Below, piece by piece: positions 1 through 18,215 of a stretch of 57,499 nucleotides of DNA; the first letter of the stretch is position 1; the number at the start of each line of letters is the position of its first letter. Made by a program: the position numbers and the translations under genes. The DNA comes from a virus (taxonomy: Duplodnaviria > Heunggongvirae > Uroviricota > Caudoviricetes). The DNA lies in the IMG/VR virus record IMGVR_UViG_2541047758_000011; one strand, 5' to 3'. The notes under the pieces are model-generated. The model did no database searches. It saw nothing but the letters and a program-made list of their open reading frames with translations, and had not been told where the DNA came from.

Positions 1-285
1 TCACCGTTAACGCCATACGATAAATGGGATGGTGAGAAATGGGTGACAGACACTGAGGCACAACACAGTGCCGCAGTAGACGCGGCAGAAGCACAGCGCC
101 AGTCACTGATTGATGCAACAATGGCTTCCATTAGTCTGATTCAGTTGAAATTACAGGCCGGACGGAAACTGACTCAGGCAGAAACAACCCGACTTAACGC
201 CGTGCTGGATTACATTGACGCGGTGACGGCAACAGATACCAGCACCGCGCCGGATGTCATCTGGCCTGAACTGTCGGAGGCGTAG
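1..285 (+). CDS. Tail fiber assembly protein, C-terminal part (5' end outside window)
   Basis: Frame 1 reads SPLTPYDKWDGEKWVTDTEAQ... open from base 1; Tfa-like C-terminus ...TSTAPDVIWPELSEA. Confidence 0.7.
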   Translation, partial: SPLTPYDKWDGEKWVTDTEAQHSAAVDAAEAQRQSLIDATMASISLIQLKLQAGRKLTQAETTRLNAVLDYIDAVTATDTSTAPDVIWPELSEA

Positions 286-685
286 GCCATTCAATATCGG
301 GTGCTGTTGACGTATCAACACGCATCAGCAGCACACGGTATTTCTTCCATTGGGTGAGAGTTGTAGCTTCTTCATCAGTTGCGATATCAGCATCAACAGC
401 ATCCTGACGCCAGGATATTTCACTGTCAGCTTTTTCCCGTAATTGGGATTTTTTAACTTCAGCAATAGCTATTAATTCCTTTTTGGTCGGCTGAGGAATA
501 TCTATCAGTGCTGGTTTTCCATTCAGTGTTCCAATCTGTTTTCCTGGTGGAATATCCATAAATAACTTTTTATGTTCTTCCTCACAGACTATTACACCAT
601 CATCAGGCCACAGACCTGATGCCTCAAATTTTTCTTTCTCCGATATGGGGAAAAAGCCATTTGCTTTAGCGCTCCATACGTACAT
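257..685 (-). CDS. Tail fiber assembly protein (Tfa-like, 142 aa)
   Basis: ORF with Tfa-like C-terminus ...RVLLMRVDTSTAPDIEWPTPP; 3' end converges on and overlaps the + strand tfa. Confidence 0.75.
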   Translation of the reverse strand: MYVWSAKANGFFPISEKEKFEASGLWPDDGVIVCEEEHKKLFMDIPPGKQIGTLNGKPALIDIPQPTKKELIAIAEVKKSQLREKADSEISWRQDAVDADIATDEEATTLTQWKKYRVLLMRVDTSTAPDIEWPTPPTVQAR

Positions 686-686
686 A

Positions 687-1337
687 TCAATACCCCACCG
701 CTATAATGTCCACATTAAATCCTCCGGGACCTGCCTGCCAGATGCTGGCCCCTGTTAATGATTTTGTTTGATGAACAACCGCCACATTTGCTGGCGATTG
801 TGTTTCAGTTGTTACAGTACCGATATCATTCCAGTTAATTGAGATGGAATAGTTCGTTGTTGTAAACGACCGGGGGAAAGTTATGTGTCTTACATTGGTG
901 CCAATAGGAAATCCAAGATAAACACGCTGAATTATCATTCCTCCAGGTAACATAACCCAGTTAGCACCTTCTCCCAAACCAAGGTTTTCGAGAGCCGTTT
1001 GCACAGTGCCATCCGATTTGATATCGCCAAACGGATTCTTGCGGCTCAGGTATTCAACAGCAAACCCCGATCCCAGCAATTCAACAAAACCGGGCAGATC
1101 ACCATTATCAAGCACATCCCGTTGCGTTTTATCACTTACAAACTGGGCCAGAGCTGCAGCAATAAAGCTGGCCTGCCGAATAACCTTATTGACTTGCGCA
1201 CTGGATGCTTTCCCTGCTGTAAATCCGGATATAAGCGCAGGCAACGCTTCCCATTCCTCCTGCGACATAACATTGGCATTTCGATCAGTTGCAAACGCTT
1301 TAAAGTCATTTTTCGCCATCAGAGTAATACTCCCCAT
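687..1337 (-). CDS. Tail fiber C-terminal receptor-binding cassette (216 aa, too short for a full fiber)
   Basis: ORF immediately upstream of tfa on same strand; Gly/Thr-rich fibre-tip-like sequence; abuts deletion junction. Confidence 0.55.
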
Positions 1338-1427
1338 GCCCCTACATCAAAACCACTGATGAATTCGTTATCCATATCAAAACCAAAAAATTTAGAGCCT
1401 TCCGATGGAGTTTCCACCGAAGGTGTT

Positions 1428-1742
1428 TCAATGCCCCCCGCCCATACCCCGGCGGCTTTTACTGTTAGATACCGCCAATACCCGTTTCATCGCGGCACTC
1501 TGGCGACACTCCTTAAAAATCAGGTTCGTGCTCATCTTTCCTTCCCGTTCTTCCCTGGTAGCAAACCGGTAATACACCGTTCGCCAGACCTTACCTTCGA
1601 TAACCAGAAGACCTGCCCGTGCCATTTTAGCCGCGGCCTGATTTATGCTGGTTACTGTTGCGCCTGTTAGCGCGGCAACGTCCGGCGCACAGAAGCTATT
1701 ATGCGTCCCCAGGTAATGAATAATTGCCTCTTTGCCCGTCAT
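1428..1742 (-). CDS. ren: Ren protein (lambda ren-like)
   Basis: MTGKEAIIHYLGTHNSFCAPDVAALTGATVTSINQAAAKMARAG... matches lambda Ren from memory; lies directly after P. Confidence 0.8.
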   Translation of the reverse strand: MTGKEAIIHYLGTHNSFCAPDVAALTGATVTSINQAAAKMARAGLLVIEGKVWRTVYYRFATREEREGKMSTNLIFKECRQSAAMKRVLAVSNSKSRRGMGGGH

Positions 1743-2440
1743 ACACTTGCTCCTTTCAGTCCGAACTTAGCTTTGATTTCTGCGATCTTCGCCAGAGCCT
1801 GTGCACGATTTAGAGGTCTACCGCCCATGACAGGAAGTTGTTTTACTGGTTCAGGGATCGCCTCACCACGGTTAATTCTCGCAGTCATATGGACAAGCTC
1901 ATCTGCGGCCTTACGGCGTAATTCCGCATCAGTAAGCGCATTGGCCCGCATGTTCTGATACAGGTTGGTAACCAGCCAGTAGTGCGCGTTTGATTTCCAC
2001 GGATAAGACTCCGCATCCGGATACAGGCCTCGCTTCCGGCAATACTCGTAAACCATATCAACCAGCTCGCTGGCGTTTGGCAGCCCGGCGGTAACGGATG
2101 CTTCTTCCCGGCACCAGGCAACAAACTGCCCGGGTGATGGCAGGAATGGTCGATTCTGCCGACGGGCTACGCGCATTCCAGCGTTAACCTGTTCCATCGT
2201 GGTGATCCCATTTTCCCGGAAAGCCAGAACCCACTGGCGGCGGATTTCGTTCAGTTCATTCTGGTCACGGTTAGCCAGGCTCGCCGGGAAAGTTGCCAGT
2301 AACTGGCTGAACACACCATTGATGATCTGCGCTACCTGTTGTACCTGCGGCTTTTCGTCGTACTGTTCCGGCATGTTGTTGGCGATCCGGCGCATCTGCT
2401 CACGGTCAAAGTTAACCATCTGTGCGGCGATGTTTTTCAT
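1739..2440 (-). CDS. P: Replication protein P (DnaB helicase loader)
   Basis: 233 aa, MKNIAAQMVNFDREQMRRIANNMPEQYDEK... recalled as lambda P; overlaps O stop. Confidence 0.93.
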   Translation of the reverse strand: MKNIAAQMVNFDREQMRRIANNMPEQYDEKPQVQQVAQIINGVFSQLLATFPASLANRDQNELNEIRRQWVLAFRENGITTMEQVNAGMRVARRQNRPFLPSPGQFVAWCREEASVTAGLPNASELVDMVYEYCRKRGLYPDAESYPWKSNAHYWLVTNLYQNMRANALTDAELRRKAADELVHMTARINRGEAIPEPVKQLPVMGGRPLNRAQALAKIAEIKAKFGLKGASV

Positions 2441-3336
2441 AAATCCACCCCGTAAATCCAGTCAGTGTTTGTCAGGTCGAGTTTTGGTTTGCTGGCTGTC
2501 ACGCCTGCCTGTTGCTTGTTACGGTTGATTTCGAGCTGGGTCCACTTGTCGCGGAGTTTGGCCGGACTCAGCACGTTACCGGACCAGAAGTTGTCCTGGC
2601 AGGCCCAGCGGAAAAGCACACACATATCGCGGTGGTTACGTCCGTCACGTTCACGCATCAGGCGGATATCGTTAGCCCACCCAGCAAAATTCGGTTTTCT
2701 GGCTGATGGCGCGATGGTCTTCACCATGTCAAACATCCACTCTGCGGCGGTCAGGTCTTCTGCTGTTCCCCACTTGCTGCCGCTCTGAATTGCAGCATCC
2801 GGTTTAACCACAGAAAGATCGTTTTCTGGCTGGTCAGAGGATTCGCCAGAATTCTCGGACGAATAATCTTTTCTTTTTTCTTTTGTAATAGTGTCTTTTG
2901 TGTCTCCCTGTTTTGAGGGATAGCAATCCCCCAATTTGAGGGATGTTTTATCCCTCGTTTTAGGGGATTTTCCCTCGTTTTGAGGGATACACCATTCTGA
3001 GATGTTTTTATTTGGTCCAAACATGCCGCCTTGCTGCTTGATAATATTCATTCTGACGAGTTCTAACTTGGCTTCATTGCACCGTTTGACAGGTAACTTT
3101 GTAATCTCGCTAAGTTGAGAATCGGTGATTCTGTCCATTGGTTTATTCCACCCATAGGTTTTACGCAGAATGGCAAGCAGCACTTTAAACTGTCGCTTGG
3201 TCAGATCTGCGCCCGAATAAGCCTCAAGCAGCATATTTGATAGTCTGGCGTAACCATCATCGAGATCTGCCACATTACGCTCCTGTCCGGCAAAGTTACC
3301 TCTGCCGAAGTTGAGTATTTTTGCTGTATTTGTCAT
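2437..3336 (-). CDS. O: Replication initiator protein O
   Basis: 299 aa, MTNTAKILNFGRGNFAGQERNVADLDDGYARLSNMLLEAYSG... recalled as lambda O; contains ori iterons. Confidence 0.93.
   Translation of the reverse strand: MTNTAKILNFGRGNFAGQERNVADLDDGYARLSNMLLEAYSGADLTKRQFKVLLAILRKTYGWNKPMDRITDSQLSEITKLPVKRCNEAKLELVRMNIIKQQGGMFGPNKNISEWCIPQNEGKSPKTRDKTSLKLGDCYPSKQGDTKDTITKEKRKDYSSENSGESSDQPENDLSVVKPDAAIQSGSKWGTAEDLTAAEWMFDMVKTIAPSARKPNFAGWANDIRLMRERDGRNHRDMCVLFRWACQDNFWSGNVLSPAKLRDKWTQLEINRNKQQAGVTASKPKLDLTNTDWIYGVDL
2860..2990. repeat. ori-lambda-type iterons (four TCCCTC...GAGGGA-like repeats) plus AT-rich tract inside O
   Basis: Seen directly: tccctgttttgaggga, tcccccaatttgaggga, tccctcgttttagggga, tccctcgttttgaggga next to an A/T-rich stretch. 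Confidence 0.85.
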
Positions 3337-3368
3337 AATGACTCCTGTTGATAGATCCAGTAATGACC

Positions 3369-3662
3369 TCAGAACTCCATCTGGATTTGTTCAGAACGCT
3401 CGGTTGCCGCCGGGCGTTTTTTATTGGTGAGAATCGCAGCAACTTGTCGCGCCAATCGAACCATGTCGTCGTCAACGACCCCCCATTCAAGAACAGCAAG
3501 CAGCATTGAGAACTTTGGAATCCAGTCTCTCTTCCACCTGCTGATCTGCGACTTATCAACTCCCACAGCTTCCGCTGTCTTCTCAGTTCCAAGCATTGCG
3601 ATTTTGTTAAGCAACGCACTCTCGATTCGTAGAGCCTCGTTGCGTTTGTTTGCACGAACCAT
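3369..3662 (-). CDS. cII: Transcriptional activator CII
   Basis: MVRANKRNEALRIESALLNKIAMLGTEKTAEAVGVDKSQISRWKRDWIPKF... recalled as lambda CII (97 aa). Confidence 0.9.
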   Translation of the reverse strand: MVRANKRNEALRIESALLNKIAMLGTEKTAEAVGVDKSQISRWKRDWIPKFSMLLAVLEWGVVDDDMVRLARQVAAILTNKKRPAATERSEQIQMEF

Positions 3663-3781
3663 ATGTAAGTATTTCCTTAGATAACAATTGATTGAATGTA
3701 TGCAAATAAATGCATACACCATAGGTGTGGTTTAATTTGATGCCCTTTTTCAGGGCTGGAATGTGTAAGAGCGGGAATGTC

Positions 3782-3997
3782 TTAAGCGGCTTTGTGTTCC
3801 GGAGGGAACACGTCATCAAGACTGACTTTTGCGCCTAACTTGTTTAGGCATGCAACAAGAGCGCGGCATGTTTTAAGGTCTGGGAAGCGACGACCAGATT
3901 CCCAATGCCCAATAGCTCCCTGTGTGCATCCAACCGCCTTAGCAAGTGTTGTTTGAGAGATATTCAGTGACTCTCGATATTTTCGTAGGTTGCTCAT
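3782..3997 (-). CDS. cro: Cro-like HTH repressor (non-lambda immunity type)
   Basis: 71 aa HTH protein MSNLRKYRESLNISQTTLAKAVGCTQGAIGHWESGRR, divergent from cI. Confidence 0.7.
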   Translation of the reverse strand: MSNLRKYRESLNISQTTLAKAVGCTQGAIGHWESGRRFPDLKTCRALVACLNKLGAKVSLDDVFPPEHKAA

Positions 3998-4108
3998 ATG
4001 CCCTCCATAGTAACCATGAGACAATAATACGATATGTACTTTTGGAATGCAAACAAAAAATACATCTTGTGCATGGATGGTTTTAGTACAGAGCGTAATA
4101 ATAAGGAT

Positions 4109-4768
4109 ATGAAAATGAAATGGTATGAACTGGCTAGATCCAGAATGAAAGAGCTCGGCATAACTCAAGAGAAGTTGGCTGAAGAGCTTGGTATGACGCA
4201 GGGTGGAATTGGTCACTGGTTGCGCGGATCTCGTCATCCATCTCTTGACGAGATTGGTGTGGTGTTTAAATACCTTGGTATTGATAACGTCTCATTCAAC
4301 CACGACGGTACATTTTCACCTGTTGGCGAATACTCATCTGCCCCCGTTAAAAAACAATATGAGTACCCTGTTTTTTCTCATGTTCAGGCCGGGATGTTCT
4401 CGCCTGAGCTTAGAACCTTTACCAAAGGTGATGCGGAGAGATGGGTCAGCACAACCAAAAAAGCCAGTGATTGTGCGTTTTGGCTTGAAGTTGAAGGTAA
4501 TTCCATGACCGCACCAACAGGATCCAAGCCAAGCTTTCCTGACGGGATGTTAATTCTCGTTGACCCTGAGCAGGCTGTTGAGCCAGGTGATTTCTGCATA
4601 GCCAGACTTGGTGGTGACGAGTTTACCTTCAAGAAACTGATCAGGGATAGCGGTCAGGTGTTCCTACAACCACTAAACCCGCAATATCCAATGATCCCAT
4701 GCAATGATAGCTGTTCCGTTGTAGGGAAAGTTATCGCCAGCCAGTGGCCAGAAGAGACGTTTGGGTGA
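4109..4768 (+). CDS. cI: CI-like prophage repressor (HTH N-domain of different immunity, lambda-cI-like S24 C-domain)
   Basis: C-terminal domain matches lambda cI (..[40 protein letters not shown]..) with Ser/Lys dyad intact; N-terminal HTH differs; start chosen at ATG 4109 after AAGGA. Confidence 0.85.
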
Positions 4769-4793
4769 TAGGAATGGATGTTAAGGATTAAGA

Positions 4794-5840
4794 ATGTCAG
4801 CGATTGATCAACCTGCGCAATATGTTATCAAGTCAGAAGACGACTTTGTATCTTTTGTAACAGAAATGCTCGGAAGGAAGGATATCGACTCAAGCGACTT
4901 CACATTCCCTAACGTAGTTTTCAGTGGATGGCCAAAGATCAATATTAATGTAAAAGGCGATCCAAATAGATATAATTCTTCATTGACTGCGTCAATGCTT
5001 TTTGGTATGGCAGAGCTTACGCATGAAATACAAAAAGCATTTACGGTAGTCAGTCACAGCACTCATAATCGGCAGAAGCTAAAAGATGCAGAGAAAGGTT
5101 TGCTGGATATTGTCTACCGAATAAGCGAAGGCTCAAGCCAAGCGGATGGTGACTCAGATCCGATTGTAAACGGAGTGGTGACAGTGTTTACTCAAGCGAT
5201 AGGCAAAATGACAGGAAGGCAAGCACTATGCGCCGTCGCCGCTATCGTCTTAGCTGCCAGCACGGTAGGCTATAAGTGGATCAATGAGTACTACGAAACA
5301 CAGCGACATGACCAAGATTCTCAGGTGCAATTGGTGGAAAAAAGCACCAAAGCGGTAAACGAAGCACAAGACAATGTGCTCAAGTTGTTGATTAGCGGTC
5401 AAACAAACATTAGCAGAGAGGTTCTGGCTCACGGCGAGGATGGTAAAAGCAAGTTGCTTAAAAAGCTTGCTCAAGACTCGTCAGTTGAGAGGGTAACAAT
5501 TGGTCAGAGAGTGGTAAATAGAGAACAGTTGAATACCTTAAACCAAAGACAATCAATTGATCGAAAAAAGGAAACTAGAAGAGATAACTTTTATGTCACG
5601 GGCGTTCGTCGCTCGGGAGAAACAAATCAGGACATAAATATTGACGTCATAAGGGTTTCAAATGGTGAATCTTTCACCATAAAAACCTCAGCCGACATAA
5701 CATCTACTGATGAGCTTCTTGAGTTTTTGAATGCTGTAGCCAAAGAATCAACTGTTGAAATTTCATACCTAGAGGTTGTAGAAAATGGGCACATTTCAAC
5801 AGGGCAATTGATAAATATATTCCCCAGCGAACCAGAGTGA
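4794..5840 (+). CDS. Unknown 348-aa protein at the rexAB position; one hydrophobic segment and a charged C-terminal half
   Basis: Long ORF 25 bp after cI, same strand, followed by hairpin terminator; no similarity to RexA/RexB recognised; AT-rich by inspection. Confidence 0.7.
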   Translation: MSAIDQPAQYVIKSEDDFVSFVTEMLGRKDIDSSDFTFPNVVFSGWPKININVKGDPNRYNSSLTASMLFGMAELTHEIQKAFTVVSHSTHNRQKLKDAEKGLLDIVYRISEGSSQADGDSDPIVNGVVTVFTQAIGKMTGRQALCAVAAIVLAASTVGYKWINEYYETQRHDQDSQVQLVEKSTKAVNEAQDNVLKLLISGQTNISREVLAHGEDGKSKLLKKLAQDSSVERVTIGQRVVNREQLNTLNQRQSIDRKKETRRDNFYVTGVRRSGETNQDINIDVIRVSNGESFTIKTSADITSTDELLEFLNAVAKESTVEISYLEVVENGHISTGQLINIFPSEPE

Positions 5841-5851
5841 TGCACTCCAAA

Positions 5852-5879
5852 CCCGGCCTCAGCGCCGGGTTTTCTTTTT
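5852..5879 (+). terminator. Rho-independent terminator after the cI operon
   Basis: cccggcctcagcgccggg hairpin followed by ttttcttttt. Confidence 0.7.
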
Positions 5880-5944
5880 CCAAAATATAAACCCATTAAA
5901 TACAAAGCGTTATAAAAAACTAATTATATTTAGAACATTTTGTA

Positions 5945-5973
5945 TTGACTCGATAAAGTACAAATCGTACTAT
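5945..5973 (+). promoter_or_regulatory. pL-like promoter (TTGACT, 17 bp, TACTAT)
   Basis: -35 ttgact and -10 tactat with 17-bp spacer upstream of nutL/N. Confidence 0.55.
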
Positions 5974-6013
5974 TTAGCCATCAGCAGGACGCACTGACCA
6001 CCATTGAAGGTGA

Positions 6014-6044
6014 GGCTCTTAAAAATTTAGCCCTGAAGAAGGGC
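6014..6044 (+). promoter_or_regulatory. nutL site (boxA gctcttaaaaatt, boxB gccctgaagaagggc)
   Basis: boxB hairpin GCCCTGAAGAAGGGC recalled as lambda nutL boxB, preceded by boxA-like CGCTCTTAA. Confidence 0.85.
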
Positions 6045-6154
6045 AGCATTCAAAGCAGAAGGCTTTGAGTAGCGCGAAATGCAGCTGCAAGACAGCAACC
6101 GTGGAGATAAGCATCACGGCGCGTTACTCAAAGCTAACTGACAGGAGAATCCAG

Positions 6155-6487
6155 ATGGATGCACAAGCACGCCGCCGCGAACGTCGCGCAGAGAAACAGG
6201 CTCAATGGAAAGCAGCAAATCCCCTGTTGGTTGGGGTAAGCGCAAAACCAGTTAACCGCCCTATTCTCTCGCTGAATCGCAAACCGAAATCACGAGTAGA
6301 AAGCGCACTGAATCCGATAGACCTTACGGTGCTGGCTGAATACCACGAACAGATTGAAAGCAACCTGCAACGTATTGAGCGCAAGAATCAGCGCACATGG
6401 TACAGCAAGCCACGCTGTGAAATGGGTGTGACTTGCTCAGGCCGCCAGAAGCAACGCGGAAAATCAATTCCAGCTTATTACGATTGA
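6155..6487 (+). CDS. N: Antitermination protein N
   Basis: MDAQARRRERRAEKQAQWKAANPLLVGVSAKPVNRPILSLNRKPKSR... arginine-rich motif, lambda N-like. Confidence 0.9.
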   Translation: MDAQARRRERRAEKQAQWKAANPLLVGVSAKPVNRPILSLNRKPKSRVESALNPIDLTVLAEYHEQIESNLQRIERKNQRTWYSKPRCEMGVTCSGRQKQRGKSIPAYYD

Positions 6488-6495
6488 GGTGAGCC

Positions 6496-6633
6496 ATGCT
6501 CAAGAAAGTCAAACGCCGACTTTACAAAGAAGGTAGATATTCATGCCAGTTGCCAAAATGCGACACAACAAAATGGAGTGTCGATGATTGGTGTAACTGG
6601 ATAGATAGATACGGAACTTGGTGGGATAAATAA
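6496..6633 (+). CDS. Small Cys-rich hypothetical protein (45 aa)
   Basis: Short ORF MLKKVKRRLYKEGRYSCQLPKCDTTKWSVDDWCNWIDRYGTWWDK; below the 60-aa ORF track threshold. Confidence 0.3.
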   Translation: MLKKVKRRLYKEGRYSCQLPKCDTTKWSVDDWCNWIDRYGTWWDK

Positions 6634-6757
6634 CAGGTAACTTAAGCGTATTTACTTTCGCAGCAAACAACTTATTTGAGGTGATATATGGAAGAAGAAT
6701 TTGAAGAGTTCGAAGAGCATCCTCAGGATGTGATGGAACAATACCAGGACTATCCGT

Positions 6758-6937
6758 ATGACTACGACTATTGATAAAAATCAATGGTGTGGACAATTCA
6801 AGCGATGCAATGGATGCAAGCTGCAATCGGAATGCATGGTTAAGCCTGAAGAAATGTTTCCTGTAATGGAAGATGGGAAATATGTCGATAAATGGGCAAT
6901 ACGAACGACGGCAATGATTGCCAGAGAACTTGGTTAA
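6758..6937 (+). CDS. ral: Restriction alleviation protein Ral
   Basis: MTTTIDKNQWCGQFKRCNGCKLQSECMVKPEEMFPVMEDGKYVDKWAIRTTAMIARELG recalled as lambda Ral; below ORF track threshold, found by manual translation. Confidence 0.8.
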   Translation: MTTTIDKNQWCGQFKRCNGCKLQSECMVKPEEMFPVMEDGKYVDKWAIRTTAMIARELG

Positions 6938-7094
6938 CAGAACAACAAAGCTGCCTGATAGTGGCCTTTATTTTTGGCATAAATAACAGAATAAACACTG
7001 CACTGTGTATTCATTCCAACGAGTGAATACACGGAGCAATGTCGCTCGTAACTAAACAGGAGCCGACTTGTTCTGATTATTGGAAATCTTCTTC

Positions 7095-7120
7095 GCCCTC
7101 CAGTGTGAGGGCGATTTTTT
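7095..7120 (+). terminator. Rho-independent terminator (gccctccagtgtgagggc + T-run), preceded by a 9-bp perfect inverted repeat at 7005-7032
   Basis: Hairpin plus gatttttt; whole ~125-bp block is repeated at 49441-49562. Confidence 0.65.
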
Positions 7121-7140
7121 ATCTATGAGGATATGAATAG

Positions 7141-7509
7141 ATGTCAAACATCAAAAAATACATCATTGATTACGACTGGAAAGCATCAATAGAAATTGAA
7201 ATCGACCATGACGTAATGACAGAGGAAAAACTTCACCAGATTAATAATTTCTGGTCAGACTCTGAATACCGACTCAATAAACACGGCTCTGTATTAAATG
7301 CTGTATTAATCATGCTGGCGCAACATGCTCTGCTTATAGCAATTTCAAGCGACTTAAATGCATATGGTGTTGTGTGTGAGTTCGACTGGAATGATGGAAA
7401 TGGTCAGGAAGGATGGCCTCCAATGGATGGTAGCGAAGGAATAAGAATTACCGATATCGATACATCAGGAATATTTGATTCAGATGATATGACTATCAAA
7501 GCCGCCTGA
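7141..7509 (+). CDS. ea10: Ea10-like early protein (122 aa)
   Basis: Sits between ral and cIII as lambda ea10 does and has the same length (122 aa). Confidence 0.7.
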   Translation: MSNIKKYIIDYDWKASIEIEIDHDVMTEEKLHQINNFWSDSEYRLNKHGSVLNAVLIMLAQHALLIAISSDLNAYGVVCEFDWNDGNGQEGWPPMDGSEGIRITDIDTSGIFDSDDMTIKAA

Positions 7510-7581
7510 GCGCGGCGTTACCGCATACCAATAACGCTTCACTCGAGGCGTTTTTCGTTATGTATAAATAAGGAGCACACC

Positions 7582-7746
7582 ATGCAATATGCCATTGCAG
7601 GGTGGCCTGTTGCTGGCTGCCCTTCCGAATCTTTACTTGAACGAATCACCCGTAAATTACGTGACGGATGGAAACGCCTTATCGACATACTTAATCAGCC
7701 AGGAGTCCCAAAAAATGGATCAAACACTTATGGCTATCCAGACTAA
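7582..7746 (+). CDS. cIII: CIII protein (FtsH inhibitor)
   Basis: [54 protein letters not shown] recalled as lambda cIII. Confidence 0.9.
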   Translation: MQYAIAGWPVAGCPSESLLERITRKLRDGWKRLIDILNQPGVPKNGSNTYGYPD

Positions 7747-7858
7747 ATTCACTATCGCCACTTTTATTGGCGATGAAAAGATGTTTCGTGAGGCCGTCGA
7801 CGCTTATAAAAAATGGATATTAATACTGAAACTGAGATCAAGCAAAAGCATTCACTAA
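7715..7858 (+). CDS. kil: Kil protein (FtsZ inhibitor)
   Basis: [47 protein letters not shown] recalled as lambda Kil; overlaps cIII 3' end. Confidence 0.85.
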
Positions 7859-8229
7859 CCCCCTTTCCTGTTTTCCTAATCAGCCCGGCATTTCGCGGGC
7901 GATATTTTCACAGCTATTTCAGGAGTTCAGCCATGAACGCTTATTACATTCAGGATCGTCTTGAGGCTCAGAGCTGGACGCGTCACTACCAGCAGATCGC
8001 CCGTGAAGAGAAAGAGGCAGAACTGGCAGACGACATGGAAAAAGGCCTGCCCCAGCACCTGTTTGAATCGCTATGCATCGATCATTTGCAACGCCACGGG
8101 GTCAGCAAAAAAGCCATTACCCGTGCGTTCGATGACGATGTTGAGTTTCAGGAGCGCATGGCAGAACACATCCGGTACATGGTTGAAACCATTGCTCACC
8201 ACCAGGTTGATATTGATTCAGAGGTATAA
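7813..8229 (+). CDS. gam: Gam (RecBCD inhibitor)
   Basis: 138 aa [55 protein letters not shown]... lambda Gam. Confidence 0.93.
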
Positions 8230-8234
8230 AACGG

Positions 8235-9020
8235 ATGAGTACAGCACTCGCAACGCTGGCTGGGAAGCTGGCTGAACGTGTCGGCATGGATTCTGTCGAC
8301 CCACAGGAACTGATCACCACTCTTCGCCAGACGGCATTTAAAGGTGATGCCAGCGATGCGCAGTTCATCGCATTGTTGATCGTCGCCAACCAGTACGGCC
8401 TTAATCCGTGGACGAAAGAAATTTACGCCTTCCCTGACAAGCAGAACGGCATCGTTCCGGTGGTGGGCGTTGATGGCTGGTCCCGCATCATCAATGAAAA
8501 CCAGCAGTTTGATGGCATGGACTTTGAGCAGGACAATGAATCCTGCACATGCCGGATTTACCGCAAAGACCGCAATCATCCGATCTGCGTTACCGAGTGG
8601 ATGGATGAATGCCGCCGCGAACCATTCAAAACCCGCGAAGGCAGAGAAATCACGGGGCCGTGGCAGTCGCATCCCAAACGGATGTTACGGCATAAAGCCA
8701 TGATTCAGTGTGCCCGTCTCGCCTTCGGATTTGCTGGTATCTATGACAAGGATGAAGCCGAGCGCATTGTCGAAAATACCGCATACACTGCAGAACGTCA
8801 GCCGGAACGCGACATCACTCCGGTTAACGATGAAACCATGCAGGAGATTAACACTCTGCTGATTGCCCTGGATAAAACATGGGATGACGACTTATTGCCG
8901 CTCTGTTCCCAGATATTTCGCCGCGACATTCGCGCATCGTCAGAACTGACACAGGCCGAAGCAGTGAAAGCTCTTGGATTCCTGAAACAGAAAGCCACTG
9001 AGCAGAAGGTGGCAGCATGA
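8235..9020 (+). CDS. bet: Bet (Red-beta ssDNA annealing protein)
   Basis: 261 aa [59 protein letters not shown]... lambda Bet. Confidence 0.95.
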
Positions 9021-9697
9021 CACCGGACATTATACTGCAGCGTACCGGGATCGACGTGAGAGCTGTCGAACAGGGGGATGATGCATGGCACAAATTACGG
9101 CTCGGCGTCATCACCGCTTCAGAAGTTCACAACGTGATAGCAAAGCCCCGATCAGGAAAGAAGTGGCCTGACATGAAAATGTCCTACTTCCACACCCTGC
9201 TGGCTGAGGTTTGCACCGGTGTGGCTCCGGAAGTTAACGCTAAAGCGCTGGCCTGGGGAAAACAGTACGAGAACGACGCCAGAACCCTGTTTGAGTTCAC
9301 TTCCGGCGTAAATGTTATTGAATCCCCGATCATCTATCGCGACGAAAGTATGCGCACCGCCTGCTCTCCCGATGGTTTATGCAGTGACGGCAATGGCCTT
9401 GAGCTGAAATGCCCGTTTACCTCCCGGGATTTCATGAAGTTCCGGCTCGGTGGTTTCGAGGCCATAAAGTCGGCTTACATGGCCCAGGTGCAGTACAGCA
9501 TGTGGGTGACGCGAAAAGATGCCTGGTACTTTGCCAACTATGACCCGCGTATGAAGCGTGAAGGCCTGCATTATGTCGTGGTTGAGCGGGATGAAAAGTA
9601 CATGGCGAGTTTTGACGAGATGGTGCCGGAGTTCATCGAAAAAATGGACGAGGCACTGGCTGAAATTGGTTTTGCATTTGGGGAGCAATGGCGATGA
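9017..9697 (+). CDS. exo: Lambda exonuclease (Red-alpha)
   Basis: 226 aa [65 protein letters not shown]... lambda Exo. Confidence 0.95.
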
Positions 9698-9855
9698 AGC
9701 ATCCTCACGATAATATCCGGGTAGGCACGATCACTTTCGTCTACTCCGTTACAAAGCGAGGCTGGGTATTTCCCGGCCTTTCTGTTATCCGAAATCCCCT
9801 GAAAGCACAGCGGCTGGCTGAGGAGATAAATAATAAACGGGGGCTGTATGACTGA
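9694..9855 (+). CDS. Small hypothetical protein (53 aa) overlapping exo stop
   Basis: ATG at 9694; [31 protein letters not shown]...; not in ORF track. Confidence 0.35.
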
Positions 9856-10405
9856 TTTCACCGGAAGCAATACTCCTGCCGAACATCGCGACAGCTGGCG
9901 CACACCACCAGAGATTTTTGCTGCGCTTAATGCAGAGTTCGTTTTTCAACTTGATGCTGCCGCCAGCGAAAAAAACCGACTATGTCGGCTTTTTATCTCA
10001 CAGGAGCAGAACACATTAACCACTTCATGGCCTGAAGCAATGGGATATGCCTCTGGTTATGTCTGGTTGAATCCACCATACAGCAATATTTCCCCTTTTG
10101 TGAAAAAGGCAGCCACTGAAAACAAATTCAGTAGTGTGGGATGTGTAATGTTATTGCCTGCTGACACATCTGTCGGATGGTTTCATGAAGCGATACAAAC
10201 CGCCAGTGAGGTCAGATTCATCACGGCAGGACGACTGGCATTTATTAACCCACTCACTGAGAAACCCGTCAGTGGAAATAATAAAGGCTCGATGCTCATT
10301 ATCTGGCACCCATACCCCCGTACACACTGCCACTTTACGACCGTTGATCGTGGAGAGTTGATGGCGTTCGGCTCAAGGATTCTTGCCCGTCGGGAGGCTG
10401 CATGA
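9848..10405 (+). CDS. Phage N6-adenine DNA methyltransferase (Dam-like, NPPY motif)
   Basis: 185 aa with ...YVWLNPPYSNISPF... motif IV typical of N6-adenine MTases; no adjacent restriction endonuclease seen. Confidence 0.75.
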   Translation: MTDFTGSNTPAEHRDSWRTPPEIFAALNAEFVFQLDAAASEKNRLCRLFISQEQNTLTTSWPEAMGYASGYVWLNPPYSNISPFVKKAATENKFSSVGCVMLLPADTSVGWFHEAIQTASEVRFITAGRLAFINPLTEKPVSGNNKGSMLIIWHPYPRTHCHFTTVDRGELMAFGSRILARREAA

Positions 10406-10481
10406 CAACCACGGAATGCATTTTTCTGGCAGCGGGCTTCATATTCTGTGTGCTTATGCTTGCCGACATGGGACTTGTTCA

Positions 10482-10697
10482 ATGACACCTCAGCAGGAAA
10501 ACGCCCTTCGCAGCATTGCCCGTCAGGCTAATTCTGAAATCAAAAAAGCCAGACAGCAGTTTCCGGATAAAAACGTCGATGACATTTGCCGTAGCGTACT
10601 AAAGAAGCACCGCGAAACGGTAACGCTGATGGGATTCACACCGACTCATTTAAGCCTGGCGATCGGCATGTTAAACGGCGTCTTTAAGGAACGGTGA
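10482..10697 (+). CDS. Hypothetical protein (71 aa)
   Basis: ORF from ATG 10482 (MTPQQENALRSIARQANSEIKKARQQ...). Confidence 0.45.
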   Translation: MTPQQENALRSIARQANSEIKKARQQFPDKNVDDICRSVLKKHRETVTLMGFTPTHLSLAIGMLNGVFKER

Positions 10698-10795
10698 ACA
10701 TGAAAAGCAAAATCATCAGGGAGCTACAGGCTCCTTTTTTATTGTTCGCATTCATCCTCAAGCGTATTAACCAACAATTCAGGGATTAATGGAAG

Positions 10796-11014
10796 ATGGC
10801 AGACATCATTGATTCAGCATCAGAAATCGAAGAATTACAGCGCAATACAGCAATAAAAATGCGTCGTCTGAACCACCAGGCTATATCTGCCACTCATTGT
10901 TGTAAGTGTGGCGATCCCATAGATGAACGAAGACGCCTGGCCGTTCAGGGTTGTCGGACTTGTGCAAGTTGCCAGGAGGAGATCGAACTTAAGAACAAAC
11001 AATGGGGATTGTGA
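10796..11014 (+). CDS. TraR/DksA-family C4 zinc-finger protein
   Basis: 72 aa with CxxC...CxxC (HCCKCGDPIDERRRLAVQGCRTCASCQ) typical of DksA/TraR fold. Confidence 0.7.
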   Translation: MADIIDSASEIEELQRNTAIKMRRLNHQAISATHCCKCGDPIDERRRLAVQGCRTCASCQEEIELKNKQWGL

Positions 11015-11061
11015 TGGCCTCAAAGCAGCAAATTTCAACATCGTCCAACTGAGGTGTAAAA

Positions 11062-11340
11062 ATGTTCAGAATCATTTTTCCTAACACCTGGTACGTCGAC
11101 CACCACGGCACTCCCTGCAAAATCCTGCGTTCTACCCACAACAAAGTTCACTACATCCGAAAAGGCAGAACATGTATCGCCAGCATGTTCCGCTTTAATC
11201 ATGACTTTGAACCTGTGAATAAAGCTGATGCAGATCGGATAGCAGAAGAGATCGAAACGGCAGAACACATTAAGAAGTTACGTGACATGCGTTCAAAAAG
11301 CAGAGGTAACCATGGAATCATACAGCCTCACACTCGATGA
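11062..11340 (+). CDS. Hypothetical protein (92 aa)
   Basis: ORF upstream of xis; no recognised motif. Confidence 0.4.
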   Translation: MFRIIFPNTWYVDHHGTPCKILRSTHNKVHYIRKGRTCIASMFRFNHDFEPVNKADADRIAEEIETAEHIKKLRDMRSKSRGNHGIIQPHTR

Positions 11341-11662
11341 GGCCTGTCAGTTTCTTAAGATATCCAGACCAACCGCCACCAACTGGATACGAACAGGCCG
11401 CCTACAGGCAACACGCAAAGACCCCACTAAACCAAAATCTCCTTACCTCACAACGCGACAAGCCTGCATTGCGGCGCTTCAGTCTCCGCTGCATACTATC
11501 AAGGTGAGCGCGGGTGATGGCATAACAGAGGAAAGAAAATGTCACTCTTCCGCAGAAGTGAAATATGGTACGCCAGTTTCACATTGCCGAACGGTAAAAG
11601 ATTTAAACAGTCTCTTGGAACAAAGGACAAAAGGCAGGCGACAGAGCTCCATGACAAGCTAA
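11312..11662 (+). CDS. xis: Excisionase-like protein (Xis), overlapping int start by 124 nt
   Basis: [45 protein letters not shown]... HTH directly upstream of int; ORF stays open into int. Confidence 0.55.
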
Positions 11663-12702
11663 AGGCTGAAGCATGGCGGGTCAGCAAACTTGGTGAAATA
11701 CCTGATATGACGTTCGAGGAGGCGTGTATCAGGTGGCTCGAAGAGAAAGCACATAAAAAATCACTGGACGATGACAAAAGCCGGATCGGATTCTGGCTTC
11801 AACATTTCGCAGGAATGCAACTAAGAGACATTACTGAATCAAAAATTTATTCAGCAATGCAGAAAATGACGAACCGGCGTCATGAGGAAAACTGGAAACT
11901 CAGGGCAGAAGCATGCAGAAAAAAAGGGAAACCTGTTCCAGAATACACGCCAAAACCAGCGTCCGTTGCAACGAAGGCTACGCATCTTTCATTTATAAAG
12001 GCCCTACTAAGAGCCGCAGAGCGTGAATGGAAAATGCTGGATAAGGCACCAATTATTAAAGTGCCTCAACCAAAGAATAAACGGATCCGCTGGCTGGAGC
12101 CCCATGAAGCACAAAGGCTGATTGATGAATGTCCGGAGCCATTAAAGTCTGTTGTTGAATTTGCACTGGCAACAGGTTTAAGACGCTCGAACATCATCAA
12201 CCTTGAATGGCAACAAATAGATATGCAGCGCCGGGTGGCATGGATAAACCCGGAAGAGAGTAAATCAAACCGCGCAATCGGCGTTGCGCTGAATGATACT
12301 GCATGTCGCGTTTTGAAAAAACAAATCGGGAATCATCACCGTTGGGTATTTGTGTACAAGGAAAGCTGTACCAAACCAGACGGAACGAAAGCGCCAACAG
12401 TAAGGAAGATGCGGTATGACGCAAACACAGCCTGGAAAGCGGCGCTGAGACGAGCTGGTATTGATGATTTCAGATTTCACGACTTGAGACACACCTGGGC
12501 AAGTTGGCTGGTTCAAGCCGGAGTCCCGTTGTCAGTGTTACAGGAAATGGGTGGCTGGGAGTCTATCGAAATGGTTCGTCGATATGCTCACCTCGCGCCT
12601 AATCACCTTACCGAACACGCACGGCAAATAGACTCGATTCTGAACCCATCGGTCCCAAATTTGTCCCAGTCAAAAAATAAGGAAGGTACTAATGATGTGT
12701 AA
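11539..12702 (+). CDS. int: Tyrosine integrase (prophage A)
   Basis: 387 aa with C-terminal catalytic region ...[42 protein letters not shown]; stop 14 bp before tRNA 3' fragment. Confidence 0.9.
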
Positions 12703-12762
12703 CTTATTGATTTAAATGGTGCCGATAATAGGAGTCGAACCTACGACCTTCGCATTACGAAT
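12699..12762. repeat. 64-bp att core direct repeat (copy 1), identical to 56038-56101; includes 46-nt 3' fragment of tRNA-Thr (12717-12762)
   Basis: gtaacttattgatttaaatggtgccgataataggagtcgaacctacgaccttcgcattacgaat is present at both positions by direct comparison. Confidence 0.9.
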
Positions 12763-13091
12763 CTGTAGAACCAATCATAACTATCTGTTTTAGCAAGCAT
12801 TAACCGCATTCACCAAGCAATAGTTGATGGCACAAACAGAAAGTTGATGCATGATGTTGTCATGTGTATGTCACAAATACGGCACAACGATCTTCAAACA
12901 TGTAGCCACCCAGCATAGAAGAGCACAAATCCTTGCAATCCAGTGCAAAGCTTTGTGTACCTTAGTTTTGTCTCATAGGTAATTCTGCTTTAACTGCGAT
13001 GCAGGAATCTGTCACCAGACGCACGTCTCGTTGTTTTATGGTTTTCCGTTCATGATTAATATGTTAGCTTGTCAAAGTTTGTGTTTAAGAT

Positions 13092-13763
13092 ATGGTGATT
13101 GATGCAATGTTAAGCGTTCAGATGACTCCACAAGCAAAAGTTAGCTTCGAGGAGCAATGTTTTTTTCATGCTTCATGTCTTGTTGTTGCCCCAATAAATG
13201 TTGGAGCATTCTCCTACTTTGGCGCTAATTGTATGCTCGGCGGCTTTACGATGGGTAGATTTTGTTCAGTTGCTCCAGGAGTAAAAATTGGCCTTGGCGA
13301 GCATGAAACTGGGTATTTTTCTACGCATCCTTTTTTCTTTGGATCAAAAAATGGTTTTAAAATCCCTGATGGTATAGGAATGCAGCGCGACCTCTCTCAA
13401 CAGAAGCATGGTATACCAAGAATTGGTCATGACGTATGGATAGGTGCAAATGCGGTTATCAGGCGAGGTATAACTATTGGTACTGGCGCTGTTATTGCTG
13501 CTGGCGCTATTGTCACCAAAAATGTCGAGCCATATTCAATCGTAGGTGGCGTTTCTGCAAAACACCTAGGGTACAGATTTGATGAATCAATCATCAAAGA
13601 GTTACTGGATAGCCAATGGTGGGAATATGATTTAAGCTCATTTATTGGGATTGATACAAGGACACCGACGACTTTTTTAGAGCAGTTTAATGCTGTAAAA
13701 GATAAAAAGAAGGCATCTTATAAGAGATTTACAATTCTTCCATCCGGTGAAATTGTTGAATAG
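13092..13763 (+). CDS. Hexapeptide-repeat (left-handed beta-helix) acetyltransferase, xenobiotic/CatB-Vat-like
   Basis: 223 aa with XAT-like blocks: [25 protein letters not shown] and [43 protein letters not shown]; AT-rich gene between attL and tailspike. Confidence 0.75.
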
Positions 13764-13782
13764 CGCATCCCTGCGCTATATT

Positions 13783-16149: not shown

Positions 16150-16281
16150 TTAATTTGCTCCAGATACAATGAATCGCCGCAGCATGGCTACGGTTGGCAT
16201 TTGTTACATACCGAAACGGTACGATTGTTGATTTGTACAGTGGGTTTTACGATGCCATTCCACCCATTTGGTGAGGCATTG

Positions 16282-16539
16282 ATGATGTACAGCAAATACG
16301 ATGAGGCGCAGTTCCACTTGAGGCTTACACACGAGTTGCACGCTAAGATTAAGCAGCGTGCAAAAATGAATAACAGGTCTATCAATTCCGAAATTGTGGC
16401 TACGATGGAAGAATCACTCTCCAAACCATCACCTGTAAGCGGGTATCGTGATGAAGAAGAGAGGCTGGCCTCATTAATCTCGGAACGAGTAAAAGAAGTT
16501 GTGGCTGATATCCTTAGAAAAGAAAAAACCCGCGATTAA
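16282..16539 (+). CDS. mnt: Mnt-like ribbon-helix-helix repressor
   Basis: ...RSINSEIVATMEESLSKPSPVSGYRDEEERLA resembles P22 Mnt (..SKPSPVTGYR..); start chosen at ATG 16282 inside a longer track ORF. Confidence 0.7.
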   Translation: MMYSKYDEAQFHLRLTHELHAKIKQRAKMNNRSINSEIVATMEESLSKPSPVSGYRDEEERLASLISERVKEVVADILRKEKTRD

Positions 16540-16548
16540 GCGGGTTTA
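16522..16548. terminator. Bidirectional hairpin terminator (aacccgcgattaagcgggtt)
   Basis: Stem-loop flanked by A-run on one side and T-rich on the other, between convergent genes. Confidence 0.55.
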
Positions 16549-16553
16549 GTTGG

Positions 16554-16775
16554 TTAGTTATCAAAAAGTCCGTACGTTTCTTCTTCTTCAGGTGTAAGGG
16601 GAAGAATCTCTACTCTATCTATAGATACCTTTTCAATGTACCCATGAGGTCTACTTAAAATTAAAGCTCTCTCATGCCACAGAACTCCAAGAATGTGATA
16701 CCTTCCAGCATCGCCTTTTACCCTGGCTCTTCCTTTGATTCTTGGCGGCATAATGCCATATTTTTTCTTTGCCAT
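16554..16775 (-). CDS. Hypothetical small basic protein (73 aa)
   Basis: ORF MAKKKYGIMPPRIKGRARVKGDAGRYHILGVLWHER...; no recognised family. Confidence 0.45.
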   Translation of the reverse strand: MAKKKYGIMPPRIKGRARVKGDAGRYHILGVLWHERALILSRPHGYIEKVSIDRVEILPLTPEEEETYGLFDN

Positions 16776-16995
16776 TATGCAACATTACTCCCATGAATCA
16801 GGTGTTGTAGTGCTTTAACACCTTCCGCATTGTAGCGGAATGCTTCCACCTGTTTGCTGGAATGCGCAGATTTATCCAGGAAGAACTTCCCGTACTGCTC
16901 AGTTTTGAGGTTGTTTGCGTTAGCAATGCGACCAATCTTGTTGGCCGTTACTCCAAGCTGCTCTGCAACCTCCCCTGCTGAGTAGTAATGCTCTT
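16775..16995 (-). pseudogene. C-terminal gene fragment truncated by IS911 (possible regulatory/antirepressor remnant)
   Basis: Reading frame runs out of IS911 left end; only ~73 codons are non-IS sequence. Confidence 0.4.
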
Positions 16996-17067
16996 TGAAG
17001 TGGTTTACTGAATTTGGCCACCTGAACAGAGGTGATATGCTCACCTCAGAACAACACAGGTGCCATA

Positions 17068-18215
<1,148 letters not shown>

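Follow-up and report, generated by a model that had tools for sequence, protein, structure and literature searches.

Introduction

At the left end of the DNA analysed here, a ren-like gene of a lambda-type early region is followed directly by tail fibre and fibre chaperone genes. This raises the question of how the two modules came to stand side by side, and whether the fibre genes, arranged as convergent cassettes, belong to a segment that can be, or could once be, inverted. The term "window" is used for the whole stretch of DNA that was analysed, 57,499 nucleotides in length. The open reading frames reported in a preliminary description of this DNA have all been found: the ren-like gene, the fibre gene beyond it, a tfa gene on the minus strand and a convergent tfa gene on the plus strand that overlaps it (Table 1). 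The locus is an ordinary decaying prophage. The full account developed below, in which a thrW prophage suffered one deletion at an ATACC repeat and carries a pix segment, a pin gene interrupted by IS3 and traces of later flipping, is considered highly probable.

Source of the sequence and prophage context

The window is identical across 11,742 nt to scaffold KE699876.1 (GCA_000457655.1) and starts 2 nt past a gap of 1716 N in that scaffold. BLAST revealed identity between the window and the complete chromosome LR882057.1 over positions 1-12762 only; an origin of the whole window from this chromosome was rejected, as the rest of the record is unrelated to the window. The tRNAs identified in the window with ARAGORN belong to a different prophage, B, and are not genes of LR882057.1. 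The left flank of the fibre locus is located outside the window and, in the probable source scaffold, partly within the unsequenced gap. The partner crossover site, the second cassette and the interrupted pin gene were read from assemblies that share 11.7-12.8 kb of identical sequence with the window.

Table 1. Features of the prophage remnant at the left end of the window
Feature	Position	Strand	Basis or remark
Surviving part of the lambdoid prophage	1-12762		Integrated at thrW
Distal-cassette tfa, 3' 285 nt	1..285	+	Caudo_TAP E 1.5e-18; PHROG tail fiber assembly E 8.9e-82
Proximal-cassette tfa, 142 aa	257..685	-	ORF list; Caudo_TAP E 3.4e-32; PHROG 188 E 1.4e-52
Fibre ORF, 216 aa	687-1337	-	PHROG tail fiber E 1.5e-65; starts 90 nt after the ren stop
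Fibre, variable C-terminal part, aa 114-210	687..980	-	Gp53-like C-terminal domain; within the invertible segment
pix-type crossover site	969..994	.	TTCTCCCAAACC-AA-GGTTTTCGAGAG; central AA at 981-982
Fibre, constant N-terminal part, aa 1-113	981..1319	-	PHROG tail fiber families match aa 1-124
DUF2612 / baseplate wedge 1 remnant, last 51 codons + 2 nt	1319..1473	-	Annotated so in relatives
ren' fusion ORF, 104 aa	1428..1742	-	ORF list; PHROG 142 Ren-like exclusion protein E 5.6e-40
Deletion junction, ATACC, 5-nt microhomology	1469..1473	.	Present in both parental sequences
Gene P, lambda-type replication	1739..2440	-	Pfam Phage_lambda_P E 4.5e-62

The deletion junction

The ren' gene overlaps the stop codon of P; it has the position of lambda ren, directly downstream of O and P, and is homologous to this gene. 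Alignment with intact ren indicated that residues 1-91 of the product are native and that residues 92-104 are read out of frame from the remnant of a DUF2612 gene; compared to the intact 96-aa Ren of strain PSS-11, 91 of the 96 residues are retained and the last five are gone. The breakpoint was located by a four-way alignment, in which the match to intact ren begins at 1469, the match to intact DUF2612 stops at 1473, and the ATACC between them is common to both. In this way codon 91 of ren is followed directly by the 3'-terminal 155 nt of the baseplate-wedge gene (DUF2612), and the remnant aligns at 100% up to position 1473 with its intact counterparts in O145:H28 RM12581 and Sakai Sp1.

The probable source is a draft scaffold in which a gap of 1716 N ends 2 nt ahead of the window, and an assembly or scaffolding artefact might be suspected at the transition from ren' to the fibre gene. 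The junction, however, is located 1.47 kb from the gap, within contiguous sequence, and it recurs in independent assemblies, among them the complete chromosome LR882057.1 and two contigs of 5.0-5.1 Mb. A search with the 36-nt junction gave no match in the species-representative genome collection. The exact sequence of the Ren' fusion protein served to identify the carriers; 171 indexed blocks of public assemblies contain it, and the junction can therefore not be an artefact of assembly. The independent assemblies already refute such an origin, the probability of which is practically nil.

The closest view of the undeleted state is provided by NZ_CM176497.1 (E. coli Eco_23-2667), a single prophage of 40 kb at thrW. 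Both flanks of the junction are found there in the same order and orientation (98.7-99.6% identical), 24,760 bp apart, and the interval is filled by the nin genes, Q, tRNAs and the lysis, terminase, head, sheath, tube and baseplate genes. The region from int to ren, as well as DUF2612, the constant part of the fibre, the TfaE-type cassette and pinE, are colinear with the locus and its left flank at 92-99.6% identity; in this relative pinE is intact and one cassette differs from that of the locus. The proposal, made in the preliminary description, that a single deletion running from nin through the tail genes fused ren to the fibre genes is borne out by the flanks of the relatives and by NZ_CM176497.1.

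The ancestor would have combined a lambda-type early region with a contractile tail, its last late genes being a short tail fibre gene with an e14-type invertible C-terminus, followed by pin. One illegitimate recombination at ATACC would have removed about 24.8 kb, from codon 92 of ren to approximately codon 175 of the DUF2612 gene, with the loss of the nin genes, Q and the lysis, head, tail and baseplate genes. The ren' fusion, the DUF2612 remnant, the fibre gene and tfa are what is left on the minus strand. As to the mechanism, we infer illegitimate recombination mediated by microhomology.

A related structure is found in prophage Sp1 of the O157:H7 strain Sakai, which corresponds to CP-933H of EDL933. 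This lambda-like remnant of 10.6 kb is likewise integrated at thrW and is built of both modules: a DUF2612 remnant, followed by the fibre gene, tfa, tfa', a variable part and pinE, is attached through a deletion to a lambda-type cI-cro-cII-O-P region. The identity to the window is 99% over positions 963-1473. The deletion junction itself is different, since the DUF2612 remnant of Sp1 is longer by about 100 nt and is joined to the 5' part of P, ren being absent; gene P, intact in the window, is truncated in Sp1. With more of DUF2612 but less of P and ren in Sp1, neither junction can have arisen out of the other, and the two deletions are therefore independent. In Sp1 pinE is intact, the second cassette is of a yfdL/yfdK-like type, and the common TfaE-type cassette has the opposite orientation.

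The two modules could also have been brought together by recombination between tandem thrW elements, one of them a lambda-like prophage and the other a myovirus prophage of the e14/SfV-like kind. Tandem elements are common at thrW and the window itself holds two; furthermore, the tail module is found with unrelated early regions, as in phage vB_EcoM-606R2, and at other chromosomal sites. However, NZ_CM176497.1 is one 40-kb thrW prophage containing exactly both modules, and Sp1 joins the same modules at thrW at a different point. Given the arrangement in these two relatives, one deletion is sufficient, and an origin from two elements is regarded as improbable. Phage vB_EcoM-606R2 was also considered as the intact parent and rejected, because only the tail module is common and its replication region is a different one (DNA polymerase, helicase).

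Fibre and chaperone genes

The fibre gene had been described as encoding a 216-aa fibre tip. An ORF of this length is indeed present, beginning at an in-frame ATG at 1337, but the most likely start is the ATG at 1319-1317, which gives 210 aa. This start is preferred because in intact relatives the ATG overlaps the stop codon of DUF2612, the gene upstream, and the start is annotated at the same place. The predicted product, with its constant and variable parts, is a whole short fibre rather than a tip. The constant part is 97-99.6% identical to the 5' ends of the fibre genes of intact prophages and of phage vB_EcoM-606R2. The Pfam Gp53-like_C match of the fibre is marginal (E 1e-4, under the curated cut-off), and neither the fibre nor Ren' could be assigned to an NCBIfam family.

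The distal tfa, represented in the window by its 3' part, encodes 197 aa at full length and starts 308 nt left of the window; the entire gene is present in one of the identical assemblies (L001, 19692-20285), where the annotation names a tail fiber assembly protein. The two tfa genes converge and their 3' ends overlap by 29 nt (257-285). Both variable fibre parts match PHROG tail fibre and collar families and a Caudo_TAP domain is present in both tfa products; the locus is thereby composed of two convergent cassettes, each with a variable fibre part and its own chaperone, which is the organization of a Din-type segment.

A scan of positions 1-4200 for promoters and terminators gave no more matches than shuffled sequence. 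With the late promoter gone, transcription of the fibre genes would presumably depend either on pR, by way of ren', or on local promoters. The fibre cannot be a host-range device for this prophage, because no virion genes are left.

Crossover sites

The pix-type site of the window encodes ALENLGLGE, fibre codons 109-117, and is positioned in frame at the boundary of the constant and variable parts. It is identical to the stfP site of e14 at 26/26 positions, and its partner, located outside the window (L001, 19216-19241), agrees with the other e14 site at 25/26; the inverted repeat extends over positions 967-985 of the window and 19223-19241 of L001. Two inverted crossover sites of about 26 bp and of the family type are accordingly present. 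The site at 969-994 has no second copy in the window; it matches itself at 0 mismatches, where 0.00 chance matches are expected, and fits the degenerate consensus of the Din families, TTNTCNNAAACCNNGGTTTNNGANAA, with 1 mismatch, where 0.04 chance matches are expected.

The stretch at 1368-1393 (ttatccatatcaaaacc...), which had been taken for the junction sequence and said to resemble a gix/hix half-site only loosely, is neither the junction nor a crossover site. It is located inside the DUF2612 remnant, consists of ordinary coding sequence identical in intact phages, and fails the Din consensus; the true site is the one at 969-994. An extension to the left in search of a second crossover site had been suggested in the preliminary description. 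In the identical genomes the partner site, the second cassette and the invertase gene are found at 0.76-2.7 kb beyond the left end of the window. The preliminary description had named a lone stf-tfa pair of the ordinary kind at that place as evidence against its reading; the second cassette and the second site are located there instead. The 16-nt repeat of the window site is the same as that reported for the P segment of e14 (PMC12529663).

The invertase gene and its IS3 insertion

A tblastn search with Pin detected no invertase gene in the 57.5-kb window (best E 2.4). In every junction-sharing assembly that shows the left flank, pin is located directly beyond the second cassette, about 0.8-2.7 kb to the left of position 1. 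In all informative carriers the gene is split after codon 68 by an IS3 of 1258 bp, and the two pin fragments flank the IS3 in L001. Removal of the IS3 together with one copy of ACTG restores an ORF of 184 aa, 96.7% identical to PinE of e14; the NCBIfam search with Pin gave sub-threshold recombinase matches only. In the probable source scaffold KE699876.1, the contig beyond the 1716-N gap stops 95 nt into IS3 at the same position of pin.

Split after codon 68, pin can give no active invertase. As the gene is adjacent to the segment but interrupted, the segment is a member of the family by descent and by its sites, and is not autonomous. The first 207 nt of pin remain beside the site, 192/207 of them identical to e14 pinE; in Gin, Hin and Cin systems a Fis-dependent enhancer acting in cis sits in the 5' part of the invertase gene, and one would be expected in the retained stretch of pin. 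The earlier remark that an invertase gene is missing is correct for the window; its loss in the same deletion, put forward there as a possibility, is not borne out, since pin is located on the side away from the deletion and was broken by IS3.

Inversion of the segment in public assemblies

Both orientations of the segment occur in nature. Among ten loci with the same ren' junction, four (L009, L012, L013 and L014) contain the exact reverse complement of the 1725-bp interior at 100% identity. The breakpoints of the inversion fall inside the shared half-sites and the outer half-sites are unchanged. A comparison of one locus of each orientation (L008 and L009) revealed not a single mismatch, either in 10.5 kb to one side or in the 5.7 kb, with IS3 included, to the other, and contigs in both orientations enter IS3 for 80-140 nt at the identical insertion point. 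The fibre product has 210 aa in the unflipped and 267 aa in the flipped orientation, the first 118 residues being shared; in the flipped assemblies the variable part of the fibre is replaced by a cassette with a Collar domain. A short ORF beginning beside pin (MPFARYFCIFIYVGLGEG...) reads into whichever cassette adjoins, and in the flipped state has a StfE2-like product of 111 aa. Recombination between the two pix sites would invert the 1.7-kb segment and would thereby exchange the C-terminal receptor-binding domain, together with its chaperone, behind the constant part.

These observations bear on the possibility that one deletion took the nin genes through the tail genes along with the invertase, and left frozen orphan cassettes with at most a degenerate site at the junction. 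The window viewed by itself agrees with this, as it is devoid of an invertase gene and ends inside the second cassette, and nothing within it is contradictory. The assemblies identical over 11.7-12.8 kb, however, have pin on the far side from the deletion, broken by IS3; perfect crossover sites exist, the segment is found in both orientations, and the motif flagged at the junction is unaltered DUF2612 sequence outside the Din consensus. Frozen cassettes are thus already refuted, unless the source genome differs from all sequenced carriers left of the gap, and are given only a very slight chance.

The segment has evidently flipped since pin was broken, because the same junction and the same IS3 are found in both orientations, which otherwise show no differences. 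The flipping was most likely catalysed in trans by a Din-family invertase of another prophage. In LR882057.1 there are 4 further places similar to the 3' half of pin, and 4 is also the median per E. coli genome, the places being counted by this similarity whether or not the gene is intact.

Instead of an invertase, RecA-dependent or illegitimate recombination at the repeat of 16-19 nt might have produced the two orientations, or the interrupted pin might have moved between strains of fixed orientation. Lateral exchange of prophage segments is frequent, and in these genomes the direct evidence for a trans-acting enzyme consists of a count of pin-like sequences. On the other hand, a length of 16-19 nt is very short for RecA recombination, the breakpoints fall exactly in the shared half-sites of canonical crossover sites, the inversion is otherwise base-perfect, and the two orientation classes differ by zero SNPs across more than 16 kb. 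Moreover, cross-reaction of Pin-family enzymes on these repeats has been reported experimentally: PinQ, PinR and PinE were each found to invert the P segment of e14, which has the same 16-nt repeats (PMC12529663). Recombination of another kind and transfer of the interrupted pin are judged unlikely, and inversion by a trans-acting invertase is retained as the preferred explanation. One metagenome contig (L006), in which the distal cassette is joined to a P2-like operon, was set aside: since its switch point lies away from the crossover core, it is probably an assembly chimera or a product of homologous exchange.

Comparison with known invertible segments

The locus can be classed as a true Pin/pix invertible segment, of the type represented in E. 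coli by e14. The cryptic prophage e14 of E. coli K-12 (stfP-tfaP / tfaE-stfE-pinE) has the same gene order and the same 29-nt overlap of the tfa 3' ends, and 28 aa of StfP across the site are identical to the fibre of the window. Compared to e14, the identity is 63% for the TfaE-like protein, 62% for the StfE-like protein and 32% for the proximal tfa product and TfaP. There are also differences between the two. The constant N-terminus of the fibre is unrelated to aa 1-75 of StfP, nor does the proximal variable domain show significant similarity to its StfP counterpart; the upstream baseplate gene encodes DUF2612 in the locus and YmfQ/DUF2313 in e14; integration is at thrW in the former and at icd in the latter; and pin is split by IS3 only in the locus. 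Like the locus, e14 is a lambdoid remnant: a deletion has fused its replication region to late genes, and ymfN is annotated as a replication/terminase chimera. In e14, Sakai Sp1 and the remnant described here, most late genes have been lost by independent deletions, and the module has been kept in all three.

The Din family includes Gin/gix of the Mu G segment, Cin/cix of the P1 C segment and Hin/hix of Salmonella. As in the locus, these systems have two inverted 26-bp sites with a central dinucleotide, in frame in the fibre gene, alternative C-termini with their own chaperones, and a small serine recombinase gene beside one site. Unlike them, the locus has a short fibre (210 or 267 aa), no virion left and an inactivated resident invertase. 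The earlier reading of the convergent cassettes as an invertible host-range segment of the kind of e14 P, Mu G and P1 C is upheld by the crossover sites and by the two orientations.

A further parallel is the recombinase-activated phage inhibition described for PinQ/StfE2 (Kirigo et al., Nucleic Acids Res 2025, PMC12529663). There, a fibre segment of a cryptic prophage is flipped by invertases encoded elsewhere, as is probable for the locus, and the 16-nt repeats are the same. The C-terminal domain of the locus that would be the counterpart of the active part of StfE2 shows no significant similarity to the C-terminal domain of e14 StfP.

Significance of the locus

The locus represents a textbook invertible tail-fibre switch stranded by one deletion, and is not a candidate for a new system. 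By analogy with StfE2, the module of fibre, chaperone and pix sites might be a domesticated switch that serves the host, one orientation yielding a surface-binding protein that would mask a receptor and shield the cell from other phages; this suggestion is speculative and rather doubtful. If the module benefits the host, its survival across at least three independently deleted E. coli remnants would be the expected pattern. Drawn from public assemblies, the locus offers a natural case of an invertible segment that evidently went on switching after its resident invertase gene had been destroyed, and switching in the absence of a resident enzyme fits the experimental reports of cross-talk between prophage invertases.

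Gene layout at the left end of the window

Window 1-4000 carries on its minus strand the lambda-type early operon of prophage A (cro, cII, O, P and a ren-like ORF), followed by a 216-aa ORF and by two convergent tail-fibre assembly (tfa) genes that overlap by 29 nt. The 216-aa ORF belongs to the tail fibres by PHROG families (aa 1-124, E 1.5e-65); the fibre start in intact relatives is the ATG at 1319, overlapping the stop of the preceding gene and giving a product of 210 aa. These ORFs and family matches agree with the ren, fibre ORF and convergent tfa pair of a preliminary description made from the sequence alone, and this observation was therefore correct. Opposite the fibre gene, the DUF2612 remnant and the ren-like ORF, the plus strand at 999-1670 contains an ORF of 223 aa along with several smaller ones, all without support and most likely spurious. 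Between cI and N, where lambda has rexAB, a 348-aa ORF at 4794-5840 (+) is conserved among several relatives under a hypothetical annotation and may be an accessory or defence gene expressed in the lysogen.

Features at the left end of the window
Feature	Position	Strand	Remark
O	2437-3336	-	lambda-type early operon
P	1739-2440	-	lambda-type early operon
ren-like ORF	1428-1742	-	lambda-type early operon
DUF2612 remnant	1319-1473	-	155 nt, read out of frame by the ren-like fusion ORF
216-aa ORF (fibre)	687-1337	-	90 nt beyond the ren-like ORF
Crossover site TTCTCCCAAACC-AA-GGTTTTCGAGAG	969-994		within the fibre gene
Tail-fibre assembly gene	257-685	-	after the 216-aa ORF
Second assembly gene	window left end	+	last 285 nt only; converges on the 257-685 gene

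Deletion junction and intact ancestral form

In relatives whose ren is intact, the match to the window begins at 1469 and runs rightwards; in those whose DUF2612 gene (baseplate wedge 1, upstream of the fibre gene) is intact, it ends at 1473. In a four-way alignment, ATACC (1469-1473) is common to both parents. The fusion ORF, ren', retains residues 1-91 of the native 96, followed by 13 out-of-frame codons through the DUF2612 remnant. An index of public assemblies lists the exact Ren' protein in 171 blocks, complete chromosomes among them, and the junction is therefore real and inherited. The motif at 1368-1393, previously quoted as the junction, is not the junction: it sits within the DUF2612 remnant and is unchanged in intact phages.

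An intact form has been identified in E. coli Eco_23-2667 (NZ_CM176497.1), as a 40-kb prophage at thrW. Its early part comprises int ... cI, cro, cII, O, P, ren, ninB-G, Q and two tRNAs, and its late part lysis, terminase, head, sheath/tube, baseplate J, DUF2612, fibre, tfa, tfa', variable part and pinE. Both junction flanks align to this prophage (98.7% and 99.6% identity) with order and orientation kept, 24,760 bp apart. Since both are colinear in one intact prophage, one internal deletion, at the 5-nt microhomology, suffices; a single deletion is also what the preliminary description had supposed. Illegitimate recombination at this microhomology would have produced it.

The 64-nt copy of the thrW 3' end at 12699-12762 is the right boundary of prophage A. 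The same 64 nt recur within the true tRNA-Thr(CGT) gene (56056-56131; region 56038-56131), followed by proA; thrW therefore carries two prophages in tandem, prophage A and another of about 43 kb (12.8-56 kb). The second prophage carries tRNA-Thr(TGT) and tRNA-Asn(GTT) genes at 38523-38678 (-); the same pair lies between Q and the holin gene in undeleted relatives of prophage A (PSS-11, Eco_23-2667), and the deletion therefore probably removed such a pair. Three ren' carriers (L007, L010 and L011; about 9420-9700 in locus coordinates) have the same junction and an additional internal deletion, from just after ral to mid-P, which takes out N, cI, cro, cII and O; stepwise decay is therefore ongoing within the lineage.

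Invertible segment and crossover sites

For the sequence left of position 1, the account rests on assemblies that share 11.7-12.8 kb with the window at full identity. The chromosome NZ_LR882057.1 (broiler isolate, Norway) is 100% identical to window 1-12762 only, not to the remainder, and scaffold KE699876.1 (GCA_000457655.1) equals the window over the 11,742 nt available, with a 1716-N scaffold gap ending 2 nt before the window start; the cut that made the window was probably placed there. This leftward extension, named in the preliminary description, revealed a second crossover site and the rest of the second cassette. Going leftwards, the remainder of the chaperone gene (197 aa in full) comes first, then a Collar-type variable part of 167 codons, the partner site and finally the invertase gene pin.

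An inverted repeat pairs window 967-985 with 19223-19241 of the NZ_LR882057.1 locus, 1.7 kb leftward. The crossover site in the fibre gene occurs once in the window, where none is expected by chance; it is identical to the stfP site of K-12 prophage e14 at 26 of 26 positions, and the partner site, TTCTCCCAAACCAACGTATATGAAAA, matches the other e14 site at 25/26. The site at 969-994 encodes ALENLGLGE (fibre codons 109-117), with the surrounding 28 residues the same as in e14 StfP. The motif at 1368-1393, tried as a crossover site, does not fit the Din-site consensus even allowing three mismatches. The e14 order stfP-tfaP/tfaE-stfE-pinE is also the order at this locus. The matching sites and gene order thus make the locus an e14-type Pin/pix invertible segment, whose logic is akin to that of Mu G/Gin and P1 C/Cin.

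Invertase gene

Previously proposed as possibly lost in the deletion, pin is still present, at the end of the segment away from the deletion. In NZ_LR882057.1 it is split by a 1258-bp IS3 into a 207-nt 5' fragment (192/207 identical to e14 pinE) and a 351-nt 3' fragment; taking out IS3 and one ACTG copy restores a 184-codon ORF, 96.7% identical to e14 PinE. IS3 occupies the same position in every Ren'-junction carrier with a readable flank: it is whole in L007, L008 and L009, the contigs of L010-L013 stop 80-140 nt into it, and the GCA_000457655.1 contig across the scaffold gap stops 95 nt into it. A duck isolate (L020, NZ_CP117717.1; 8609-12205) has a different prophage, apparently complete and with a baseplate of the YmfQ type, that ends in an unbroken pinE sharing 99.9% identity with the split pin and followed by the same genes; the pin end module has therefore been exchanged between prophage types.

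Both orientations and probable inversion in trans

Among ten loci with the identical ren' junction, six have the window orientation (210-aa fibre, then 142-aa chaperone) and four the opposite one (267-aa fibre with a Collar domain, then 197-aa chaperone). In the flipped loci the 1725-nt interior is exactly reverse-complemented (100% identity); the breakpoints fall within the shared half-sites, and the outer ones have not moved. The unflipped L008 and the flipped L009 show no mismatches over 10.5 kb on one side and 5.7 kb, including IS3, on the other. At least one inversion followed the disruption of pin, because the deletion and the inserted IS3 are common to both orientation classes. Its simplest cause would be another Din-family invertase, acting in trans. 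NZ_LR882057.1 has four further places resembling the 3' half of pin, the median per E. coli genome being four. Inversion by PinQ, by PinR and by PinE has been reported for the e14 P segment, which has the same 16-nt repeats as this locus (PMC12529663).

The inverted repeat, the e14-identical site and the two orientations bear out the invertible fibre-cassette layout of the preliminary description, which was right on this and on the deletion and wrong on the invertase loss and the candidate crossover motif, the true site being 969-994.

Present role and related prophage remnants

Prophage A is without virion genes, and its late promoter and Q are gone; transcription of the fibre genes would presumably have to start at pR and pass through ren', or start at promoters nearby. 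A consensus scan of 1-4200 for promoters and terminators gave no more matches than shuffled sequence did. According to a 2025 paper, the PinQ-flipped e14 segment gives a protein blocking T2 adsorption (PMC12529663). The flipped state here creates a comparable 111-aa ORF; no significant similarity links its C-terminal domain with the one in e14 StfP, so this function is not transferable to the 111-aa product. Domestication of the fibre/chaperone/pix module is improbable.

A metagenome contig (L006, ERZ27234797 k141_29595; 11458-20315) has the distal cassette running into a 504-aa fibre gene instead of pin, then a P2-like baseplate, tail and lysis operon. The change from prophage-A-like to P2-like sequence falls about 640 nt leftward of window position 1, in the variable part and not at the crossover core, and a separate Din-like site, TTCTCCCAAACCAAGGTATGCGAGAA, is present in the P2-like fibre gene; the contig is either an assembly chimera or the product of cassette exchange between prophages.

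Sp1 of O157:H7 Sakai, also at thrW, contains the same two modules. In contrast to the window, the 5' part of P is joined there to a DUF2612 remnant about 100 nt longer; since neither junction is derivable from the other, the two deletions are independent. The Sp1 pseudogene annotated as 'replication protein P' (9357-9668 of the locus) is a fusion of about 255 nt of DUF2612 3' remnant and about 60 nt of the P 5' end. Prophage e14 is likewise a lambdoid remnant, with a replication gene fused to a terminase fragment and an intact fibre-pin module. Given these parallels, the window adds one more case to a well-known class of structures and represents ordinary prophage decay of a known type.
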